From the NCBI GenBank assembly GCA_964565085.1, contig CAZMCS010000001.1, forward strand, positions 1-43,944: DNA of 43,944 nucleotides, written 5' to 3'. A program made the position numbers and the translations under genes. Below are positions 1 to 32,095 of this stretch, in pieces. This DNA is from an uncultured Muribaculaceae bacterium. Its GTDB lineage: Bacteria > Bacillota_I > Bacilli_A > RF39 > UBA660. The notes below the pieces were generated by a model that was not told where the DNA came from, searched no databases, and worked only from the letters and a program-made list of their open reading frames with translations. The first letter of the stretch is position 1; each line of letters starts with the position of its first letter.

Positions 1-362
1 TCATCATTCCATTTTTCTTTCATTTCATCTTTATTGATAAAGCATTGATCACTAGTTGTTGTTTCTAATATGTACTCAGAATTCTTATAACTTTTATTTA
101 AAGTATAAGTGCGAGCTGCGACTGCCATTGCCTTTAGTGCTTCAAATTCAAAAGAAGCAGGCATTTCACATGAAACAACTCCTACTATGTAATCTTCAAG
201 ATTCATTTCAATGTTAAAATCATTTTTTGAAATCATAACTTTTTTTATTTCTTTAATTTTCGCTTTTTCAACTATTTCTTTTGATTCATCATGATGTAAA
301 AAAAAGAAGGAAATAAAAAATATAGGTATTAAAAGCAATACTGTTATAATCAAATATTTCAT
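1..362 (-). CDS. spoIID: Stage II sporulation protein D (SpoIID/LytB family). N-terminal part only; the gene runs off the left edge.
   Basis: My own minus-strand translation from the ATG at 362-360 gives MKYLIITVLLLIPIFF (signal/TM) ... EALKAMAVAARTYTLNKSYKNSEY. AVAARTY is the SpoIID-family signature. It is absent from the ORF track because the window edge truncates it. Confidence 0.7.
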   Translation of the reverse strand, partial: MKYLIITVLLLIPIFFISFFFLHHDESKEIVEKAKIKEIKKVMISKNDFNIEMNLEDYIVGVVSCEMPASFEFEALKAMAVAARTYTLNKSYKNSEYILETTTSDQCFINKDEMKEKWND

Positions 363-7679: not shown

Positions 7680-9620
7680 ATGAATAAATTTTTAATTATT
7701 TCAAAAATATTAATTTTTTTATTTATCAGTTTTATAATAGTCAATATTTCTTTTTATGTGTATGCTTATATCACTCCAAAGTTAGATATTGGTACTGCAA
7801 ACCAAATTCAAATCTATGATAAGGAAAACAATATTGCATTTGAAAATCTTGATGGAACAAAATGGGTTACTATTGATAAGATTTCAAAAAATATTATAAA
7901 TGCTACAATATCTATAGAAGACAAGAATTTTTATAATCATCATGGATTTGATTATTTAAGAATTGTAAAGGCTTTAGCAATTGATTTTATAAATAAATCT
8001 TTGAATCAAGGAGCTTCTACTATATCTCAGCAATATATTAAAAATTTATATTTAGATTTTGATAAAACATGGAGTAGAAAAATAGAAGAAGCACTACTTA
8101 CACTAGAATTAGAGGTACATTATAGTAAAGACGAAATCTTAGAAGGATATTTAAATACTATAAACTATGGCGCGGGAAACTTTGGAATAGGTCCAGCATC
8201 AGAATATTATTTTAATAAAAGCGCGGATAAATTATCTTTAGCCGAAGCTAGTATAATTGTCGGAATACCTAAAAATCCAACTGGATATAATCCTATAACA
8301 AATCTTGATAATGCAAAAAAAAGACAGAAACTAATACTAAATAGTATGGTTAATAATGATATGATTACAAAAGAAGAAGCTGAAAAAGTTTATAATGAAA
8401 AATTAGAATTTTATGGTAAAAAAGATTCAGAAGAATTAGCAAGTCTTTTATATTATAAAGATGCAGTTTTAAGTGAATTAAAAAGTATTAAAACTATTCC
8501 ACATTCGTTATTGGAAACAAAAGGATTAAAAGTATACACAAATCTTGATATTGAAGTACAAAAAAAACTTGAAAATATTATTAATGAAGAGATGGCAAAT
8601 GAAAGTGAACTTCAAGTTGCTTCTATTGTTGTAGAACCTAATACTGGTAAAGTTTTGGCTTTAATTGGAGGAAGAAACTATTCATCTTCTCAATTTAATA
8701 GAGTTACTCAGTCAAAAAGGCAGGTTGGTTCTACTATGAAACCTTTTTTATACTATGCTGCTTTAGAAAATGGATTTACTGCTTCTTCTTCATTTACCAG
8801 TGAAGCAACCACATTCAATGTAGGCAACAATAAAACATATTCTCCTAAGAATTATGGGGAAATTTATGCTAATAAAGAAATCTCTTTAGCGAGCGCTATT
8901 GCATTCTCTGATAATATTTACGCTGTTAAAACTCACTTATTTTTAGGTGAGCAAACATTAGTAGATACTGCTAAAAGAGTTGGAATAACTGCAGAATTGC
9001 AAGCAAATCCTTCTTTACCATTAGGAAGTAATGAAATAAATATGCTTGATTATAGTAATGGTTTTGTTACTTTAGCAAATGAAGGTATAAAGAATAAAAG
9101 TTATTTTATTACTAAGGTAACTGATATGAATGATAAAGTTTTATATGAATTTAATTATGAAGAAGAAACAGTTTTAAATAGTAGATATGTTTATATTTTG
9201 AATGAATTGTTATCAAATACCTATAATTACTCTTTTGTAGATTATACTTCTCCTACTTTGCTTAGCGTAAAATCTATTCTTAGCAAAAAGTATGCTGTTA
9301 AAAGTGGAAGTACAGATACAGATTACTGGACTATCGGTTATAATCCAGATTTGCTTATTATGACTTGGACAGGTTATGATGATAATAAACCTCTTGCAGG
9401 TTCACAATCTAAAATTGCAAAAAGAATATGGGCGAGAACAATGGAAAGCGTTTTAGAAAATAATACAAATAATTGGTATGAAATTCCTAAAGGAATTACT
9501 GCGTCTTTGGTAAATCCATTATCAGGTGAAATTAAAGAAACGGGATCAACCGTTCTACTTTATTATATTAAAGGTACAGAACCTTCAATGAGTGAAGAAA
9601 TATTTAATGGTCTATTTTAA
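7680..9620 (+). CDS. Class A penicillin-binding protein (bifunctional glycosyltransferase/transpeptidase, PBP1A-like)
   Basis: TM anchor. GT51 motifs EDKNFYNHHGFD, GASTISQQ and RKIEEA. Transpeptidase motifs STMKP (SxxK), SDN and KSGST. RBS GGTGGTG lies before the ATG. Confidence 0.92.
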   Translation: MNKFLIISKILIFLFISFIIVNISFYVYAYITPKLDIGTANQIQIYDKENNIAFENLDGTKWVTIDKISKNIINATISIEDKNFYNHHGFDYLRIVKALAIDFINKSLNQGASTISQQYIKNLYLDFDKTWSRKIEEALLTLELEVHYSKDEILEGYLNTINYGAGNFGIGPASEYYFNKSADKLSLAEASIIVGIPKNPTGYNPITNLDNAKKRQKLILNSMVNNDMITKEEAEKVYNEKLEFYGKKDSEELASLLYYKDAVLSELKSIKTIPHSLLETKGLKVYTNLDIEVQKKLENIINEEMANESELQVASIVVEPNTGKVLALIGGRNYSSSQFNRVTQSKRQVGSTMKPFLYYAALENGFTASSSFTSEATTFNVGNNKTYSPKNYGEIYANKEISLASAIAFSDNIYAVKTHLFLGEQTLVDTAKRVGITAELQANPSLPLGSNEINMLDYSNGFVTLANEGIKNKSYFITKVTDMNDKVLYEFNYEEETVLNSRYVYILNELLSNTYNYSFVDYTSPTLLSVKSILSKKYAVKSGSTDTDYWTIGYNPDLLIMTWTGYDDNKPLAGSQSKIAKRIWARTMESVLENNTNNWYEIPKGITASLVNPLSGEIKETGSTVLLYYIKGTEPSMSEEIFNGLF

Positions 9621-10726
9621 TCTTTTTTAATCTTAATTACAATTTGATACATATCTTCAAAGTCAAACTCTTCAATGTCCGCTATAAAACCTTTATTATT
9701 TAGTTCACTTGTTAACCCTCTTACAGAATTAATAGCTTCAGATATTGATTTAGATGGCTTTAAATCTTCTATAATAGGAATTGTATCTTCTTGTTTTTGT
9801 TGCTTAAATTCTTCTACAAGTTGATTTGTAGGAAGAATCTCTTCAATTGGTTCCACTGCGGGATTATCAAGTTTTAATTCTTCTTTTACATCAAAATTTA
9901 ACACTTCCGCTGATTCCAATTTTTTAATAGAATCATCATTTGTTGAATCAATATCAATCTCTTGAAATGGATTAATAGTTGAAAGTTCTTGTTTAATTTG
10001 GTCAGATGGTTTATTTATGTCTGTGGTTTCATTTATTTGTGGTGATAAAAGCATATCCATATTCATTTTAGGAGTATCTAAGTTAATTATTTCTTCTGGT
10101 TTATTATTTATGTTTTGTTTCCCTAAAAGTTTTGATATTTCTTCTTCTGTTTGTTTAACAGTCAATCTATTTACTATAATTTTATTTAACATTTTTATTT
10201 GAAGAGCAGGATCTGATATAGAAAGCAAACTTCTTGCATGTCTTTCAGATATTTTATTATTAAGTAAAGCATCCTGTACTTCTTCGTCAAGAGATAATAA
10301 TCTGATTTTATTTGCCACAGTAGATTGTTTAACTCCTATTTTTTGAGCTATATCATCCTGAGTTAATCCCCTATTTGCCAATTTTTTATATGACTGAGCC
10401 TCTTCCATTGCATTTAAGTCTTTTCTTTGAACATTTTCTACAACTGCTAATTCTGCACTTGTATCATCATCAGTTTCCATTATAATTGCAGGAACACTTA
10501 TTAATCCAGCAATAGTAGAAGCCTTGTATCTTCTCTCGCCTGCTATTATTTCGTACTTATCTCCTATTTTACGCAATAAAAGCGGTTGTAAAACACCATG
10601 CTGTTTAATAGAAGCAGCAAGATTGTTTAATTCCTGTTCATCAAAAGATAAACGAGGTTGAAATCTATTTGGAATAATATCTTCAACTAATATATTTATT
10701 ATTTCTTTTTTATCTTCCACGGACAC
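9617..10726 (-). CDS. noc: ParB/Noc-family CTP-switch DNA-binding protein with Noc-like specificity residues and a Noc-like C-terminus. It has an atypical architecture.
   Basis: IIPNRFQPR and GERRYKAS ParB boxes. The HTH is LTQDDIAQKIGVKQSTVANKIRLLSLDEEVQDALLNNKISERHARSLL. The C-terminus (EEFDFEDMYQIVIKIKKD) resembles the B. subtilis Noc tail, recalled from memory. It sits directly next to rsmG, the canonical noc position. GTG start, with an in-frame TAA 15 nt upstream. Confidence 0.75.
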   Translation of the reverse strand: MSVEDKKEIINILVEDIIPNRFQPRLSFDEQELNNLAASIKQHGVLQPLLLRKIGDKYEIIAGERRYKASTIAGLISVPAIIMETDDDTSAELAVVENVQRKDLNAMEEAQSYKKLANRGLTQDDIAQKIGVKQSTVANKIRLLSLDEEVQDALLNNKISERHARSLLSISDPALQIKMLNKIIVNRLTVKQTEEEISKLLGKQNINNKPEEIINLDTPKMNMDMLLSPQINETTDINKPSDQIKQELSTINPFQEIDIDSTNDDSIKKLESAEVLNFDVKEELKLDNPAVEPIEEILPTNQLVEEFKQQKQEDTIPIIEDLKPSKSISEAINSVRGLTSELNNKGFIADIEEFDFEDMYQIVIKIKKD

Positions 10727-20244: not shown

Positions 20245-20700
20245 TTGAGTTATGAAATAAATAAAAATACATTAGCTATTATTCCTATTGAAACTAAAAA
20301 AAGTAAAATAATAGAAAAGTCTAATGAATATGTATTTGAAAAAAATAGTTTTCAAATAGTTGAACATAGTTGTAAGTATTTTGGAAGTTCATATGAAGGA
20401 AGACATAAAGGAACTAAAGAATTAACTGGAATAACACATAAATCACCTATAATAATAGAAGAATCCAGTAAATTAATTTTTTTCCCAACAACTTCTCCCT
20501 TAAGAGATGATTGTATTTGGATTTCATTAAATAATATTTTAAATTATTTCCCGGGAAATAATGGAGATACATCATTTGTTGAATTTAAATCAGGAGAAAA
20601 GTTAGAATTAGATATGTCAATTGGATCACTTACTAATCAAATATTAAGAGCTACAAGACTTCAAGTTGTATTAAGTGAAAGAATTAAAAATAATAACTAA
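20245..20700 (+). CDS. comK: ComK-family competence transcription factor
   Basis: LAIIPIE..., VEHSCKYFGSSYEGRHKGT, KSPIIIEES..LIFFPTTSP...CIWISLNNI match the ComK family pattern. TTG start 5 nt after GGAGGTG. Confidence 0.8.
   Translation: MSYEINKNTLAIIPIETKKSKIIEKSNEYVFEKNSFQIVEHSCKYFGSSYEGRHKGTKELTGITHKSPIIIEESSKLIFFPTTSPLRDDCIWISLNNILNYFPGNNGDTSFVEFKSGEKLELDMSIGSLTNQILRATRLQVVLSERIKNNN
20545..20560. promoter_or_regulatory. Perfect Noc-binding-site (NBS) 16-mer inside the comK coding sequence
   Basis: TATTTCCCGGGAAATA. The perfect palindrome extends to 20 bp (20543-20562) and encodes NYFPGNN. Confidence 0.65.
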
Positions 20701-23809: not shown

Positions 23810-26287
23810 ATGATGAATATAGAAAATGAAATAAGAGATAGAGTTTCTGATGTTAATATTTATAATGAAATGAAAAATTCATTTATAGATTATTCAATGA
23901 GTGTAATTGTATCAAGAGCTTTACCTGATGTTAGAGATGGATTAAAACCGGTTCACAGAAGAATATTATATGCAATGAATACTTTAGGGATGACGGCTGG
24001 ATCTCCTTATAAAAAAAGCGCAAGAATCGTCGGAGACATTATTGGTAAATATCACCCTCATGGAGATTCATCTGTTTATGATGCTTTAGTTAGAATGTCT
24101 CAAGATTTTAACTATAGATATGCATTAGTGGACGGACATGGAAACTTTGGTTCTGTTGATGGTGATGGCGCTGCTGCAATGCGTTATACTGAAGCTAGAA
24201 TGAGTAAAATTGCAATGGAAATGATAAGAGATATAAATAAAGATACTGTTGATTTTATTCCAAACTTTGATGAGGAAGAAACAGAACCGGTAGTATTACC
24301 TTCTAGATTTCCAAACTTATTAGTTAATGGAAGTGTAGGGATCGCAGTAGGTATGGCTACAAACATTCCTCCTCATAATATTTGTGAAACCATAGATGGT
24401 TGTATAGCTTGTATAGATAATCCTAATATTAGTATAGTAGAATTAATGCAATATATAAAAGGTCCAGATTTCCCAACAGGAGCAGTTATTTTAGGAAATA
24501 GTGGCATAAAAAAAGCTTATGAAACGGGTAAAGGAATAATCTATATTCGCGCGAAAGCGACTATAGAAGAAAATAAAAATGGAAAACATTCTATTATAAT
24601 TACTGAAATACCATATCAAATTAATAAATCTAATTTAATAATTAAGATAGCAGATTTAGTTAAAGAAAAAATAATTGATGGTGTTTCTAATATAATTGAC
24701 GAAACATCATTAGAAAAAGGTTTAAGAATTGTTATAGATGTTAAAAAAGAAGCTAATGCTAATGTGATTCTAAATAATTTATATAAGCACACTGCACTAC
24801 AATCTTCTTTTGGGATAAATATGTTAGCTTTAGTAGATGGACAACCAAAAATATTAAATTTAAAAGAGATTCTTACTAATTATATTGAATACCAAAAGTT
24901 AGTTATTATTAGAAGAACAAAGTTTGATTTAGAAAAAGCAGAAAAACAAGCTCATATATTAGAAGGATTAAAAATTGCTTTAGATAATATAGATGAAATA
25001 ATTAAATTAATTAAAACTGCAAAGACTGATGCAGAAGCCAAAACTGGCTTAATGACTAAGTTTAATTTATCTGAAGTCCAATCAGAAGCTATTCTTGAAA
25101 TGAAATTAAGAAGGTTAACCGGGTTAGAAAGAGAAAAAATAGAAGAAGAGTTGGAAAAACTATTAAAGTTTATAGCAGAATTAAAAGAAATTTTATCAGA
25201 TCCAACTAAAGTATTAGATACAATTAAAAAAGAACTTCTTGAAATAAAAGAAAAATATGGAGATGAACGAAGGACAGATATAGATATGACATCAGTGGAA
25301 TATATTGAAGATGAATCATTAATTCCAGAAGAAAAAATAGTGGTAACAATTACTAACAACAATTATATTAAAAGAATTCCTAGCGATACATATAAAACTC
25401 AAAATAGAGGTGGAGTGGGCATAAAAGGAATGACAATTAATGAAGAAGATTTTGTAGATAAAATTATCAGTTTAACTACACATGATTATATGTTATTCTT
25501 TTCAAATAAAGGAAAGGTATATAGATTAAAAGGTTACGAAATACCAGAGTTCTCTAGGACAGCTAAGGGGTTACCATTAGTAAATTTATTACAAATAGAT
25601 AAAGATGAGAATATAAATGCTGTAGTAAAAATAGAAAAAGAAAATACATACAAATGTTTGTTCTTTGCAACAAAACAAGGAGTTGTGAAAAGAACAGAAA
25701 TATCTGAATTTGACAGTATAAGACAAAGTGGTAAAATTGCGATTACATTAAAAGATAAAGATGAGTTAATAGCGGTTAAGAAAACCACAGGTAACAACCA
25801 AATATTAATGTGTTCTTCAAATGGAAGAATGGTCAGATTTAATGAAATTGAAGTAAGAATTATGGGAAGAACTGCTGCAGGAGTGAGAGGGATCAATTTA
25901 GGAGAAAATATTTGTGTAGGAACAGAAATATCTGAAGAAAATCATTTGGTTTTAGTTGTTACTGAAAAAGGATATGGCAAAAAAACAAAGATAGAAGAAT
26001 ATAGAGAGACCAAGCGAGGAAGTAAAGGTGTAAAAACATTGAATGTGACATCTAAGAATGGTAACATTGTTGGTTTCAAATCAATTTCTGAGGACTCTGA
26101 TTTAATAATAGTAACAAATAATGGAATAATAATTAGAATAGATGCTAACAAAATATCAGAAATGGGCAGAGTAACTCAAGGAGTAAGATTAATTAATTTA
26201 AAAGAAAATAATTTAGTAGCATCAATATCTATTATAAAAAAAGAAGATGACATTTCTAATGAAATGCCAGAAGATAATAATGAGTAA
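23810..26287 (+). CDS. gyrA: DNA gyrase subunit A
   Basis: [31 protein letters not shown] (QRDR), [11 protein letters not shown] (catalytic Tyr) and C-terminal beta-pinwheel repeats. 825 aa. Confidence 0.98.
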
Positions 26288-26303
26288 TGTTTCACGTGAA
26301 ACA
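26288..26303. promoter_or_regulatory. parS: parS site 1 (perfect ParB/Spo0J centromere-like site); may double as the gyrA terminator stem
   Basis: TGTTTCACGTGAAACA matches the Firmicute parS consensus TGTTNCACGTGAAACA. The palindrome extends to 26 bp (26283-26308), includes the gyrA stop codon, and is followed by CTTTTTTTT. Confidence 0.85.
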
Positions 26304-26322
26304 TTACTTTTTTTTATTAAAT

Positions 26323-26338
26323 TATTTCCCGGGAAATA
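26323..26338. promoter_or_regulatory. Noc-binding site (NBS) copy, module 1
   Basis: TATTTCCCGGGAAATA contains the B. subtilis NBS core ATTTCCCGGGAAAT. The perfect palindrome is 24 bp (26319-26342). Confidence 0.75.
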
Positions 26339-26417
26339 ATTTTGAAATAAAATTTAATTTTAAAAATAAAATAAATGTTAAAATTTAGTTTTATTTTAAA
26401 ACAATATATAAATACTA

Positions 26418-26433
26418 TGTTTCACGTGAAACA
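26418..26433. promoter_or_regulatory. parS: parS site 2 (perfect)
   Basis: TGTTTCACGTGAAACA. The palindrome extends to 22 bp (26415-26436). Confidence 0.85.
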
Positions 26434-26455
26434 TAGGTTTATTAGATAAATAAAT

Positions 26456-26471
26456 TATTTCCCGGGAAATA
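26456..26471. promoter_or_regulatory. Noc-binding site (NBS) copy, module 2
   Basis: TATTTCCCGGGAAATA. The perfect palindrome is 26 bp (26451-26476) and lies immediately upstream of the ffs promoter region. Confidence 0.75.
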
Positions 26472-26480
26472 ATTTACAAT

Positions 26481-26500
26481 TATAATATAATATAATATAA
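26481..26500. repeat. (TATAA)4 pentanucleotide repeat that generates overlapping TATAAT -10 hexamers
   Basis: TATAATATAATATAATATAA. The last TATAAT (26496-26501) lies ~6 nt upstream of the predicted SRP RNA 5' end. Confidence 0.7.
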
Positions 26501-26507
26501 TTTAATT

Positions 26508-26585
26508 GGCACAACATATAACATGGAATCAGGTCAGAGTTGGAAAACAGCAGCCTTAACATAGTTTATATGTGTGTGCCTTTTT
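26508..26585 (+). ncRNA. ffs: Small (4.5S-type) signal recognition particle RNA
   Basis: A long hairpin: GGCACAACAUAUAAC pairs with GUUUAUAUGUGUGUGCC. The apex CAGGUCAGAGUUGGAAAACAGCAGCC matches the conserved SRP domain IV (GGUCAG...GGAA tetraloop...CAGC). It is followed by U5. The position next to tadA/dnaX matches scr in B. subtilis. Confidence 0.8.
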
Positions 26586-26599
26586 AAAAGAGGTTTATA

Positions 26600-27007
26600 A
26601 TGAATAGAAAGTACATAGATATTTTAAAAAGATTAGTTCAAAAAGCAATTAAAAGCGATGAAGTCCCAGTAGGAGCGTTAATAACTTATAATAATAGAAT
26701 AATATCTAAATCATATAATAAGCGAAAAAAGAAAAATAATGTACTTATGCACGCTGAAGTCGACGCAATAATAAAAGCATCAAAAAAATTGAAAGATTGG
26801 AGACTTAATCACTGTATAATGTATGTTACTTTGAAACCATGCGAAATGTGCATTGAAATTATTAAAGCATCAAGAATAAAAAAAGTTTATTATTTGTTAG
26901 AAAACGAGAAAGAAATTAATAATAATACTGAATTTATAATGAAAAAAGATGATTATAGTTTTGAATACAAAGAAACTTTAGCAAATTTTTTTAAAAGAAA
27001 AAGATAA
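26600..27007 (+). CDS. tadA: tRNA-specific adenosine deaminase (CMP/dCMP deaminase zinc-binding)
   Basis: VPVGALI, HAEVDAI and PCEMC zinc-ligand motifs. 135 aa. Confidence 0.88.
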   Translation: MNRKYIDILKRLVQKAIKSDEVPVGALITYNNRIISKSYNKRKKKNNVLMHAEVDAIIKASKKLKDWRLNHCIMYVTLKPCEMCIEIIKASRIKKVYYLLENEKEINNNTEFIMKKDDYSFEYKETLANFFKRKR

Positions 27008-29835: not shown

Positions 29836-30669
29836 ATGAGTAGTAAAATTGAGCAATATTTTATTAATATGAAGAAACTGAATAAAATTGGACATGCCTT
29901 TTTAATTGGAAATGAAACTTTAGATAAAATTGAAATATCTTTAAACGATATAATTTCAAAATATATTTTAAATGAAGAAACAGATATTCGCAATTGTTCT
30001 GATATTTATGTTATAATTCCAAATGGAACTTCTATAAATAAAGATCAAATGTTGGAACTCCAAAAGAATTTAAAAACGACTTCTCAAATACATGATAAAA
30101 AGATATATATAATAAGTGAATGTGAAAAATTAAATCCACAAGCTGCTAATAGTTTATTAAAAATATTAGAAGAACCTGAACGAGATATATTTGCTTTTTT
30201 AATTACTGGTAATATTAATAAAGTTATGGAAACTATAAAATCTAGATGTCAGATTTTGTTTTTAGCCAGTTCGATAAATCAGGAAAATATATATCAAACT
30301 ATAGATGAAACAACTTTTATAAATATAGTTGAATTTATAAAGAATCTAGAAGGAAGGCAATGTAAAAGTATTGCATATATTAATAAATTATTTGATAAAA
30401 CTACTGAAAAAAGTGATTTAAAAAATATATTTAATATAATGGAATATTTTTATATGGATTGTTTAAATTATTTCCTGGATAAAAATATAGAATATTTTAT
30501 AAATGATGAAATTTTAATAAAAGGAATTTCAAATAGAAATACTATAAAATCTATAACAAACAAAATTTTAATAATAAATTCAATAATAAATAAAATTGAT
30601 TATAACTTGAATGTTAATTTATTATTAGATAAAATTATAATAGAGTTTGGAAGGTGTAAAAATGCTTAA
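29836..30669 (+). CDS. holB: DNA polymerase III delta-prime subunit
   Basis: HAFLIGNE, AANSLLKILEEPE and KSRCQIL motifs. Followed by yaaT/ricT, as in Bacillus. Confidence 0.85.
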   Translation: MSSKIEQYFINMKKLNKIGHAFLIGNETLDKIEISLNDIISKYILNEETDIRNCSDIYVIIPNGTSINKDQMLELQKNLKTTSQIHDKKIYIISECEKLNPQAANSLLKILEEPERDIFAFLITGNINKVMETIKSRCQILFLASSINQENIYQTIDETTFINIVEFIKNLEGRQCKSIAYINKLFDKTTEKSDLKNIFNIMEYFYMDCLNYFLDKNIEYFINDEILIKGISNRNTIKSITNKILIINSIINKIDYNLNVNLLLDKIIIEFGRCKNA

Positions 30670-31477
30670 TATTATTGGAATAGAATTTAAAGACAATGGT
30701 AAAGTTTATTATTTTAATTCGAAAGATTTAAATGTAGTAATAAACGATAATGTAGTTGTAGAAACAGAACGTGGTCTTCAATTTGGTAAAGTCGTAACAG
30801 AGGTTAAAGAAATATCTAATAATGCGGCGAGTCGTAACTTACATGAGGTTATTAGAATAGCTTCTAAAGATGATCAATATCAATATTTAAGAAATATTGA
30901 AGAAGCAAAAAAAGCTTTGTTAAAAGCTACTAAACTCGCAAAAGAATTAAATTTAGATATGAGATTTACCGAAGTTTGTTATACATTTGATAGAAATCAA
31001 TTAATATTATATTTCTTATCAGAGAATAGAGTTGATTTTAGAGAATTAGCAAAACAATTAGCTGCGATTTATAGAACTAGAATTGAATTAAGACAAATAG
31101 GAGTTAGAGATAAAGCAAAAGAAATATCAGGTATAGGGCCTTGCGGGAGGCAATTATGTTGTGCATCATTTTTAAATGATTTAGATGCAGTTAGTATTTC
31201 AATGGCTAAAAATCAAAATTTAGCTTTAAATCCAACTAAGATAAATGGTTTATGTGGAAGATTGCTTTGTTGTTTGAATTATGAAGATGATTTATATACT
31301 GAAAACAAAGAAGGAATGCCTGATATTGGAGATATAGTTAAAACAGATAAAGGCGAAGGAGTAGTTGTAGCAGTTAACATTTTGAATAGAGAATATACTA
31401 TTAATGTTGAAGGCGAAGGAAAAATAGAAATTAAAATGGAAAATAATTGTGAAAGATGTGGAAAATGTAAAAAATAG
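30662..31477 (+). CDS. ricT: PSP1-domain protein RicT/YaaT (stage 0 sporulation / RNase Y maturation complex)
   Basis: GIEFKDNGKVYYF, VVVETERGLQFGKV, IYRTRIELRQIGVRD, GPCGRQLCCASFL..CGRLLCCLNYE. The ATG at 30662 follows GGAAGGTG. Confidence 0.9.
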   Translation: MLNIIGIEFKDNGKVYYFNSKDLNVVINDNVVVETERGLQFGKVVTEVKEISNNAASRNLHEVIRIASKDDQYQYLRNIEEAKKALLKATKLAKELNLDMRFTEVCYTFDRNQLILYFLSENRVDFRELAKQLAAIYRTRIELRQIGVRDKAKEISGIGPCGRQLCCASFLNDLDAVSISMAKNQNLALNPTKINGLCGRLLCCLNYEDDLYTENKEGMPDIGDIVKTDKGEGVVVAVNILNREYTINVEGEGKIEIKMENNCERCGKCKK

Positions 31478-31496: not shown

Positions 31497-31512
31497 TATT
31501 TCCCGGGAAATA
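31497..31512. promoter_or_regulatory. Noc-binding site (NBS) copy between ricT and pth
   Basis: TATTTCCCGGGAAATA. The perfect palindrome is 24 bp (31493-31516). It is followed by TTTTTATT and then TATAAT at 31524-31529. Confidence 0.75.
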
Positions 31513-31546: not shown

Positions 31547-32095
31547 ATGAAATTAATAGTTGGTCTCGGAAATCCTGGTAAGGAATATGAAAAAACAAGA
31601 CATAATATAGGTTTTATGGCTATTGATTCATATTGTTCTAAAAAAAACTTGTCATTTAAAAAAAAGTTTAATGGTATATATGCGAAAGATGTAGTAAATG
31701 GAGAAGAAATTATTTTTTTAAAACCACAAAGTTTTATGAATTTATCAGGGGATGTTATAAATAAGTATATGAATTTCTTTAAAATAACTATTGATAATAT
31801 ATTGATTATATATGACGATGTTGATTTTGAAATAGGTATTTTAAAATTAAAGCCTGATGGGTCTTCAGGAGGGCACAATGGAATAAAGAATATTATAAAT
31901 AAACTTGGTACTTCAAATTTTAAAAGAATAAGAATTGGTATTTCAAAACATAATGAGAATATGGTTAATTATGTGTTAGGAAAGTTCTCAAAGGATGAAA
32001 TGAAAAAAATTAATGAAATTATAGATACCATAATTAGAATAATCGAGGATTATACGAAATTAAGTTTTGAAAATTTAATGAACAAATATAATTAG
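31547..32095 (+). CDS. pth: Peptidyl-tRNA hydrolase
   Basis: MKLIVGLGNPGKEYEKTRHNIGF, GGHNGIKNI. 182 aa. Confidence 0.96.
   Translation: MKLIVGLGNPGKEYEKTRHNIGFMAIDSYCSKKNLSFKKKFNGIYAKDVVNGEEIIFLKPQSFMNLSGDVINKYMNFFKITIDNILIIYDDVDFEIGILKLKPDGSSGGHNGIKNIINKLGTSNFKRIRIGISKHNENMVNYVLGKFSKDEMKKINEIIDTIIRIIEDYTKLSFENLMNKYN

Follow-up and report, generated by a model that had tools for sequence, protein, structure and literature searches.

parS and Noc-binding sites (NBS) lie interleaved in the spacer between gyrA and the small SRP RNA gene (ffs) of the window, by which we mean the whole stretch of 43,944 nucleotides analysed here. This composite parS-NBS cluster is real and is conserved in related genomes. 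The window covers the oriC region; GC skew reaches its minimum there, near 17 kb, and the cassette is situated about 9 kb to the right of this minimum and dnaA (Table 1).

parS and NBS sites in the origin region

The parS 16-mer of the window, TGTTTCACGTGAAACA, starts at 26288 and 26418 and matches the 16-bp parS consensus palindrome TGTTNCACGTGAAACA. The NBS palindrome is TATTTCCCGGGAAATA, with a 14-bp core of ATTTCCCGGGAAAT, and is present in four perfect copies. The first-pass annotation had described two modules, each a parS followed by an NBS, and all four of these 16-mers were found to be perfect and to lie where it placed them. The start-to-start parS-NBS distances of 35 and 38 bp, the module period of 130 bp and the two differences per half-site between the motifs (positions 2 and 7) were likewise reproduced. 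The two motifs are the canonical parS and NBS sequences, and oligonucleotides identical to them are used in PMC8429893. Two further perfect NBS, at 20545-20560 and 31497-31512, had not been listed before. Base composition predicts about 1e-5 occurrences of each perfect 16-mer in the window, and no shuffle reached the observed number of parS or NBS matches. With four NBS in 43.9 kb, both parS would by chance have an NBS within 40 bp with a probability of about 5e-5. A near-parS at 162-177, with three mismatches to parS and two to the degenerate parS/NBS pattern, was taken to be a chance match.

The first base of parS#1 is the final base of the gyrA stop codon. At the other end of the cassette, the extended arm of NBS#2 overlaps the -35 hexamer of a promoter-like site (TTTACA-17-TATAAT, 26473-26501) preceding ffs. 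Outside the extended palindromes, the two module spacers show weak alignment, and spacer sequence differs among relatives as well, in agreement with the earlier view that the sites rather than the spacers are conserved. A recent tandem duplication within the window is unsupported, given this poor alignment; the claim that the modules are not a recent duplication is thus reasonable for the window, but relatives do have clear recent tandem amplifications of composite units.

Table 1. Sites and gene landmarks in the window
Feature	Position	Strand	Remarks
Noc-like ParB-family CTPase gene, 369 aa	9617..10726	-	adjoins rsmG; predicted NBS reader
oriC region and dnaA	17043..18886	+	GC-skew minimum ~17 kb
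Additional NBS	20545..20560	.	perfect; within ComK-family ORF (20245-20700), read ..YFPGN..
gyrA	23810..26287	+	cassette starts at gyrA stop codon
parS#1	26287..26304 (16-mer 26288-26303)	.	perfect match; 18-bp palindrome ATGTTTCACGTGAAACAT conserved in lineage
NBS#1	26319..26342 (16-mer 26323-26338)	.	perfect match; extended 24-bp palindrome AAATTATTTCCCGGGAAATAATTT
parS#2	26417..26434 (16-mer 26418-26433)	.	perfect match; extended palindrome 26415-26436
NBS#2	26452..26475 (16-mer 26456-26471)	.	perfect match
Small SRP RNA gene (ffs)	26498..26589	+	right-hand border of cassette
tadA-like deaminase gene	26600..27007	+	right-hand syntenic anchor of cassette in relatives
Additional NBS	31497..31512	.	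perfect; spacer between PSP1-domain gene (30647-31477) and pth (31547-32095)

Conservation of the cluster in related genomes

A composite-pattern scan of the genome collection, in which loci were selected for having one close parS-NBS pair, recovered parS and NBS together at no fewer than 120 loci in at least 118 assemblies. The composite loci listed were all from uncultured gut Bacilli and all at the gyrA-(ffs)-tadA-dnaX position; ffs adjoins tadA in 17 of 18 relatives. The position of parS and NBS is the same although GyrA identity is as low as 52-70 %. The gyrA-proximal cassette therefore recurs at one syntenic place, and the juxtaposition is non-random. One composite locus belongs to a closed 1.31-Mb genome (L095), and OZ006981.1 is a closed genome of the lineage. 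The NCBI taxonomy labels were found to be inconsistent, namely Bacilli, Erysipelotrichaceae, Tenericutes, Mycoplasma, Muribaculaceae and Clostridium.

When gyrA 3′ flanks were sampled without bias, the parS cluster was constant and NBS were interleaved with it in about half of the relatives. About half had parS only, with relatives that keep a parS cluster and have no NBS anywhere in up to 11 kb, and outgroups with less than 50 % identity in the GyrA C-terminus had neither site. The parS system therefore stands alone, as the parS-only clusters show. Among composite loci, the sites vary widely in order, spacing and copy number, which weakens the case for an obligatory composite unit. The earlier idea of hard-wired pairs thus holds for the recurrent juxtaposition, but not for strict adjacency.

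The two site classes are discrete. The 718 sites from relatives comprised 402 pure parS/parS and 308 NBS/NBS palindromes and 8 single-base variants, with no chimera. The parS sites have A at -2 in 96 % of 401 cases, with 18 conserved bp (ATGTTTCACGTGAAACAT), and the NBS have the extended flank consensus AAA(T/A)TATTTCCCGGGAAATA(A/T)TTT of about 24 bp (307 sites). With a median of 3 and a maximum of 10 copies per locus, parS was found, in the loci covered, only in the intergenic spacer downstream of gyrA. NBS recurs at a homologous place within dnaX of relatives, where it is read KIISREII, and in the PSP1|pth spacer of 5 relatives; none was found in the 21 kb left of oriC. Some loci consist of tandem units with exactly one parS and one NBS each, of 83 bp in 13 copies in L095 and of 75 bp in 8.8 copies in a second locus (L061), whose units use the parS variant TGTTCCACGTGAAACA. 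The unit identity of 92-95 % marks these arrays as recent amplifications. A literature search found no published description of an interleaved parS/NBS arrangement.

Spacing, alternation and helical phase

Neighbouring parS and NBS are mostly 20-50 bp apart, versus 100-200 bp for parS-parS neighbours, with a minimum of 20 bp and no overlaps. Site types switched 270 times along the loci, against 211 ± 8 in shuffles and a maximum of 235 across 2000 label shuffles, and parS-NBS distances showed a 10.5-bp periodicity with a phase of about 170-177 degrees (z about 8, collapsed to 183 spacer families), both the alternation and the phasing statistics being inflated by tandem amplification and shared ancestry. 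The phase for like-like neighbour distances was about 351 degrees. Under a period scan, the phasing was above the 95th percentile of the null and below its maximum, and beyond 50 bp no helical phasing was detected. These data are suggestive of a preference of unlike neighbours for half-integer helical turns.

The Noc-like protein

The sole ParB-family gene in the window encodes a Noc-like protein, which matches PF02195 and PF17762 and has Noc structures as its best PDB matches (7nfu, 7ng0 and 7ol9). It has a ParB-type N-terminal domain with CTP motifs, an HTH DNA-binding domain and a Noc-like C-terminal domain; GERRYKA and ENVQR are conserved in 90 % or more of the orthologues. The score against TIGR04285 is 272 bits, below the cut-off of 315.

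In the study of PMC7383237, the NBS-type residues are Q173/K179/K184/R201, of which Q173 reads the NBS-specific A and R201 the NBS-specific C, while one K/R at 179 or 184 is enough; R173 is invariant among parS binders, and most of the dual-specificity variants (82 in the deep mutational scan) have T/S at 201. The Noc-like protein of the window has Q-K-S-R at positions 173/179/184/201. Q173 and R201 were found in 120 of 120 orthologues and K/R179 in 119 (one T), with N, S, A or T at 184. The exact variants QKNR, QKSR, QKAR and QKTR and PtoN12/13 were not found in the main text of PMC7383237, and it is by the general rules of that paper that the protein is predicted to bind NBS only.

Only 14-22 residues, acidic or polar, precede the PNRFQPR motif in the Noc-like family, whereas B. 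subtilis Noc has 39. Directly upstream of the start are in-frame stops and an RBS. An N-terminal amphipathic membrane-targeting helix was looked for in the family and none was found. B. subtilis Noc begins with a 10-residue amphipathic helix; helix alpha2 and a loop come between it and the N-terminal domain. The amphipathic helix targets Noc to the membrane and is needed for occlusion (PMC8429893). Because the Noc-like protein has no such helix, classical membrane-tethered nucleoid occlusion is unlikely, and the DNA-to-membrane tethering that the first-pass annotation gave as the role of Noc is probably lacking here. The protein also contains an acidic linker insert, about 110 aa long, in which an (I/L)NPFQ motif is conserved; this peptide is a candidate partner-docking site.

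The putative reader of the parS sites

The ancestral ORI cluster of Firmicutes normally has parA-parB beside noc (PMC8136486). Here, the 3′ neighbour of the Noc-like gene is PBP1A in the window and a Band_7 gene in relatives, with no parA-parB. A search of essentially all ORFs of the 44-kb window with NCBIfam and Pfam gave no canonical ParB or ParA gene, tblastn for ParB/Soj homologues over 167 origin-region loci of relatives (about 1.2 Mb) returned the Noc-like gene only, neither search giving a ParB with the parS-type residues R173 and a small residue at 201, and the 20-kb neighbourhoods of two Noc-like orthologues on long contigs contained no parA/parB. We infer that there are two separate readers and that the parS reader is encoded elsewhere in the genome; the Noc-like protein would bind NBS and a putative ParB would bind parS.

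Proposed dual loading zone and alternative explanations

In known systems, a CTP-dependent sliding clamp that recruits SMC is loaded at parS (PMC8429893, PMC6852036), and this is the expected role here. We propose that the gyrA-ffs spacer is probably an origin-proximal, centromere-like dual loading zone for two paralogous CTP-dependent clamps. The parS palindromes would nucleate a canonical ParB/Spo0J-type clamp, formed by the putative ParB, and the NBS palindromes the Noc-like clamp, each protein reading its own site alone. With sites 20-50 bp apart, non-overlapping and tending to alternate and to be set at half-integer turns, both dimers could occupy the DNA simultaneously. CTP-driven closure would then let both clamps slide onto the shared flanks, gyrA/gyrB/dnaN/dnaA on one side and ffs/tadA/dnaX on the other, and one oriC-proximal domain would be covered by both nucleoprotein complexes. 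The Noc-like protein may provide a second, ParB-independent handle on the centromere region, for example for origin positioning or for initiation/division control. Co-loading and functional coupling of the two clamps are presumed in this proposal. In B. subtilis, Spo0J and Noc act jointly (PMC6852036); S. aureus has Noc and ParB without ParA, and its Noc spreads over 8-10 kb and controls initiation (PMC5540599).

Other explanations were considered for the same sites. If the palindromes were structural RNA or DNA elements, that is, intrinsic terminators or REP-like intergenic repeats, their resemblance to parS and NBS would be due to chance. parS#1 does supply the 12-bp stem of a terminator-like hairpin at 26282-26309 (-13.3 kcal/mol, z -4.7), which is followed by U8 and is by prediction a good terminator directly 3′ of gyrA, and four of the four cassette sites are intergenic. 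The NBS hairpins, however, are weak (-7.2 kcal/mol, NBS#1 being no better than shuffles), NBS are conserved in coding sequence (dnaX, comK), terminators would not account for arrays of up to 13 copies, the 14-16 bp identity to two independently defined ParB-family sites is exact in at least 118 assemblies, and the cognate Noc-like gene is 16 kb away. A plain terminator or REP explanation was therefore rejected as exceedingly improbable; what stands of it is that parS#1 doubles as the predicted stem of the gyrA terminator hairpin. The suggestion that one protein may recognise both sites is also disfavoured. It would require that ParB and ParA were lost and that the Noc-like protein reads parS as well as NBS, the cluster being a centromere for a dual-specificity clamp. 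The single ParB-family gene in the window and in the origin regions of three relatives, the absence of parA/parB from the ancestral place, the N/S/A/T at position 184 instead of the K of Noc and the existence of 82 dual-specificity variants (PMC7383237) all fit such a protein. Q173/R201 in this sole ParB-family protein is, however, the NBS-specific pattern, differing from both the invariant R173 of parS binders and the T/S201 of most dual-specificity variants; a promiscuous reader should tolerate mixed half-sites, yet chimeras were 0 of 718; the two classes differ in flank preference and genomic distribution; and relatives keep parS clusters without NBS in up to 11 kb. We consider a single reader improbable.

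Two separate readers may also merely share space. The sites would then sit in whichever tolerant non-coding stretch is closest to oriC in very compact 1.3-Mb genomes, with duplication making the arrays and adjacency having no function. The parS-only half of the unbiased relatives, the highly variable order, spacing and copy number and the presence of NBS elsewhere nearby (dnaX, comK, PSP1|pth) are consistent with this, and recent tandem amplification alone yields alternation. Against it, a site and its neighbour of the other type are systematically closer than two neighbours of one type, none of the 2000 label shuffles reaches the observed alternation, the helical-phase preference is opposite for unlike and like neighbours and survives collapse by spacer family, and at least 118 assemblies retain both types in one spacer despite unconserved spacer sequence. 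Passive co-residence is, in our judgement, rather unlikely, though to be taken seriously, and the dual loading zone is preferred.

A more specific form of the dual loading zone is possible, although we hold it to be doubtful. The parS-NBS module may be a stereospecific two-clamp loading unit, with ParB and the Noc-like paralogue without a membrane-targeting sequence on opposite faces of 20-50 bp of DNA, the clamps intermixing or corralling each other over the origin domain, and the (I/L)NPFQ linker replacing the function of ParA or of membrane tethering. If true, two paralogous CTP switches would have evolved in nature to cooperate on one centromere.

Comparison with known systems

As in the ParB/Spo0J-parS systems of Firmicutes (B. 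subtilis, S. aureus and S. pneumoniae), the 16-bp consensus is identical and several parS copies are found within about 10 kb of oriC. Here, in contrast, parS is concentrated in one spacer after gyrA, often in tandem arrays, is extended to an 18-bp palindrome and is interleaved with NBS, and parA/parB are absent from the ancestral place beside noc. The likeness to Noc-NBS of B. subtilis and S. aureus lies in the identical NBS core, the location of the Noc-like gene beside rsmG/gidB, and the residues Q173/K179/R201. NBS lie at 20.5, 26.3, 26.5 and 31.5 kb of the window, which may reflect a comparable spread over origin-proximal DNA. The system here differs in having no membrane helix, a residue other than K at position 184, the acidic insert, a score below the TIGR04285 cut-off and NBS that are very dense near oriC (4 in 11 kb) and interleaved with parS.

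The sopC centromere of F consists of tandem 43-bp repeats with one SopB site each, whose copy number varies by unequal recombination. The arrays described here resemble this iterated centromere in having short tandem units with a palindromic ParB-family site and a variable copy number; sopC has one site type and one protein, whereas the 75-83-bp units carry two sites, predicted to serve two paralogues. In the multipartite genomes of Vibrio and Burkholderia, paralogous ParB systems have insulated specificities. An engineered two-colour labelling system combines ParB-parS and Noc-NBS (PMC11109969). As in these, the two paralogues here would each be faithful to their own palindrome without cross-talk, but those systems act on different replicons or loci, whereas here both site types are adjacent on one stretch of DNA.

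Biological significance

ParB and Noc are founders of the CTP-switch clamp family and the textbook pair for a duplicated DNA-binding protein gaining insulated specificity, and published descriptions give each of them its own separate sites. With both site types interleaved, this lineage offers a natural experiment on whether adjacent paralogous sliding clamps ignore, block or help each other, and equally on the role of a Noc unable to bind the membrane and on centromere function after parA/parB left the origin cluster. The natural 75-83-bp units could be used directly as substrates in loading, roadblock and single-molecule assays in vitro, and the strict lack of hybrid sites is an in-vivo read-out of specificity insulation.

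Genetic organization of the origin region and the cassette

The window is an entire MAG contig of 43,944 bp lying across a replication origin, with the GC-skew minimum at about 17 kb. To the left of the origin are rnpA, yidC, jag, mnmE, mnmG, rsmG and a ParB-family gene; to the right, dnaA, dnaN, a ComK-family gene, recF, gyrB and gyrA are followed by the cassette, the SRP RNA gene (ffs), tadA, dnaX, ybaB, recR, holB, a PSP1 gene, pth, mfd, spoVT and more sporulation genes. The cassette, two parS sites (loading sites of the ParB/Spo0J clamp) alternating with two Noc-binding sites (NBS), lies about 9 kb from oriC and begins on the gyrA stop codon, the final base of which is the first base of parS#1.

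Both parS are perfect copies of the 16-mer TGTTTCACGTGAAACA and both NBS of TATTTCCCGGGAAATA; the first-pass annotation had located all four palindromes correctly, and its parS-to-NBS spacings of 35 and 38 bp and module period of 130 bp were confirmed. Base composition predicts about 1e-5 occurrences of each 16-mer per window, and the observed counts were not reached by any shuffle of the window. Two extra perfect NBS were found, one of them inside the ComK-family gene, where it is read as YFPGN. This gene matches Pfam ComK (E = 2.5e-46), is unrecognised by NCBIfam, and keeps its place in 24 loci from the composite (parS plus NBS) scan and in L122-L124, three further loci of relatives. Scanning the window for hybrid or degenerate parS/NBS sites returned none except a weak match near the left contig end (CATTTCACATGAAACA; 3 mismatches to parS, 2 to the degenerate pattern), which is probably due to chance.

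Features of the window and of the Noc-like gene neighbourhood in relatives (single positions are first bases of 16-mers)
Feature	Position	Strand	Remark
Weak parS/NBS match	162-177		
Noc-like ORF	9617-10726	minus	369 aa; best family match Noc; sole ParB-family gene of the window
ComK-family gene	20245-20700		between dnaN and recF
Extra NBS	20545		inside ComK-family gene
parS#1 with flanks	26282-26309		hairpin
parS#1	26288		
NBS#1	26323		
parS#2	26418		
NBS#2 arm and promoter-like site	26452-26501		before SRP RNA gene
NBS#2	26456		
SRP RNA (ffs)	26498-26589		
Extra NBS	31497		
Band_7_1 gene, L122	11174-12364		directly after Noc-like gene
Band_7_1 gene, L123 and L124	11191-12387		directly after Noc-like gene

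With its flanks, parS#1 folds into a hairpin with a 12-bp stem (-13.3 kcal/mol) followed by U8, and this centromere site thus also acts as the intrinsic terminator of gyrA. The NBS form weak hairpins. NBS#2 and the -35 element of a near-consensus (11/12) promoter-like TTTACA-17-TATAAT, positioned for transcription of ffs, overlap through the extended NBS arm. Occupancy of NBS#2 could affect ffs expression.

Distribution of the cassette in relatives

One genome per species was scanned with the pattern GTTTCACGTGAAAC-N(6-36)-ATTTCCCGGGAAAT, which matched at least 120 loci (118 assemblies among the matches listed), nearly all from uncultured gut Bacilli of 23-45% GC. Every listed locus has the same gyrA-proximal position, with gyrA, the sites, ffs plus tadA, and dnaX in order; GyrA is 52-70% identical to that of the window, and the SRP RNA adjoins tadA in 17 of 18 loci checked. 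Copy numbers per listed locus range from 1 to 10 for parS and from 1 to 13 for NBS. The arrays of L095, whose 1.31-Mb chromosome is closed, and of L061 consist of tandem units, 83 bp long (x13) in the former and 75 bp long (x8.8) in the latter, with one parS and one NBS per unit. Several contigs stop within the array (L005 and L018, both from MAG CANQHY, and L014, L019 and L062, cut at contig ends), which suggests that the repeats break short-read assemblies; copy numbers from MAGs are probably underestimates. The cassette-bearing MAGs (L002-L121) are filed in NCBI under Bacilli, Bacillales, Erysipelotrichaceae, Tenericutes, Mollicutes, Mycoplasma, Clostridium and even Muribaculaceae, and public taxonomic labels for this lineage are inconsistent. 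The lineage includes OZ006981.1, a closed chromosome of 1.31 Mb.

Since the composite scan preselects loci with a close parS-NBS pair, an unbiased sample was gathered from metagenomes via the GyrA C-terminus, counting loci with at least 55% identity and enough 3′ flank. Here L126/L148, L127 and L158 carry a parS cluster but no NBS, L128, L129 and L130 carry interleaved parS and NBS, and L133 has neither; neither site was found in any outgroup below 50% GyrA identity. The core feature is therefore the gyrA-adjacent parS cluster, with NBS interleaving common yet not obligatory: the juxtaposition noted in the window alone recurs in at least 118 assemblies, but the pairing is not strictly hard-wired.

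Within the clusters, sites never overlap (closest, 20 bp). Most neighbours of unlike type lie 20-50 bp from each other and most parS-parS neighbours 100-200 bp, and site type switches 270 times, versus 211 ± 8 in 2000 label shuffles (maximum 235). Peaks in the parS-NBS distances lie near 26, 36 and 48 bp. Over 183 spacer families the Rayleigh statistic is about 8 at 10.5 bp (p ~3e-4 for a pre-specified period); in a 7-16 bp scan the best period, 10.5-10.6 bp, falls between the 95th percentile and the maximum of the scan null. The parS-NBS phase is about 170-177 degrees, i.e. half-integer turns; for like neighbours it is about 351 degrees, at a weak z of 3.3. Helical phasing of the pairs is suggestive, with tandem amplification and shared ancestry incompletely removed.

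The Noc-like protein

With 272 bits, the Noc-like protein falls short of the TIGR04285 cut-off of 315; among solved structures it is closest to Noc of Geobacillus and B. subtilis, with Spo0J/ParB ranking behind them. Across 120 orthologues compared, the specificity positions 173/179/184/201 read Q-K/R-(N/S/A/T)-R (Noc, QKKR; ParB, R..G), a mapping cross-checked against PDB alignments. In a deep mutational scan (Jalal et al., PMC7383237), the NBS-specific bases A and C are read by Q173 and R201, respectively, and a single K/R at 179 or 184 suffices, while R173 is invariant among parS binders and most dual-specificity variants have T/S at 201. By these rules, the Noc-like protein is predicted to read NBS, not parS.

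The CTP motifs GERRYKA and ENVQR and the Noc-like C-terminal domain are conserved among orthologues. Between the DNA-binding and C-terminal domains lies a variable insert of about 110 aa (residues ~210-320), acidic and of low complexity, within which a short conserved (I/L)NPFQ motif (near residues 253-258) is a candidate peptide for docking a partner. The stretch before the PNRFQPR motif is just 14-22 polar residues long in the 120 orthologues, versus 39 residues in B. subtilis Noc, and the start in the window has an RBS and in-frame stops directly upstream. Thus, unlike B. subtilis Noc, this family is without the 10-residue N-terminal amphipathic helix that Noc requires for membrane binding and occlusion (PMC8429893), and the membrane tethering described for B. 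subtilis Noc probably does not carry over.

The ancestral Firmicutes ORI cluster is parA-parB-noc (PMC8136486); neither parA nor parB follows the Noc-like gene in the window or in three relatives examined. In L122-L124 it is followed by a Band_7_1 gene (SPFH-like, PF13421), which is absent from the window, where a PBP1A gene abuts the Noc-like gene.

Readers of the two sites and interpretation

The relatives' loci hold 718 general-form sites, of which 402 are pure parS, 308 pure NBS and 8 have a single odd base; hybrids of one parS and one NBS half are absent. Flanking A and T extend parS to a palindrome of 18 bp (A at -2 in 96%), and flanking AAA(T/A) and (A/T)TTT extend NBS to about 24 bp. 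About 397 of the 402 parS lie in gyrA-tadA-dnaX intergenic space, and NBS also occur in the PSP1-pth spacer and inside dnaX. In at least 20 species (including L006, L011, L015, L020, L021, L025, L027, L043, L049, L052, L064, L067, L073, L077, L083, L084, L104 and L115) a perfect extended NBS is conserved within the dnaX coding sequence, at a homologous linker position after domain III (~residues 360-385 in window DnaX numbering), read K-I/N-I-S-R-E-I-I (KIISREII). Its palindrome holds a TAA stop in the -1 frame; E. coli produces gamma by frameshifting in this dnaX region. The window's own dnaX has no internal NBS, and the 21 kb left of oriC in three relatives contain neither site.

A single dual-specificity protein, the alternative raised in the first-pass annotation, would explain why no parS reader was found in the window or in the relatives' loci searched; the lack of hybrids, the different flanks and distributions and the Noc-like specificity residues disfavour it and favour two separate readers. 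We infer that a separate parS reader exists; S. aureus provides a precedent for having Noc and ParB but no ParA (PMC5540599). As an explanation of the palindromes, plain hairpins can in practice be dismissed.

The reading with the best support is a centromere-like parS cluster near the origin, with interleaved loading sites of a Noc paralogue lacking the membrane helix; the main rival is passive co-residence of both site types in a permissive spacer. With separate readers, two CTP clamps would load next to each other and share the oriC-proximal DNA over which they spread. Functional coupling of the clamps is plausible by analogy, since Spo0J and Noc together influence the timing of division in B. 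subtilis (PMC6852036) and Noc controls initiation in S. aureus (PMC5540599). All components belong to known families. Our literature search, in line with the initial impression that no adjacent parS-NBS arrangement had been described, turned up no account of parS and NBS interleaving or of a Noc family lacking the membrane-targeting sequence (MTS), and the interleaving is of clear interest for the ParB/Noc and CTP-switch field.
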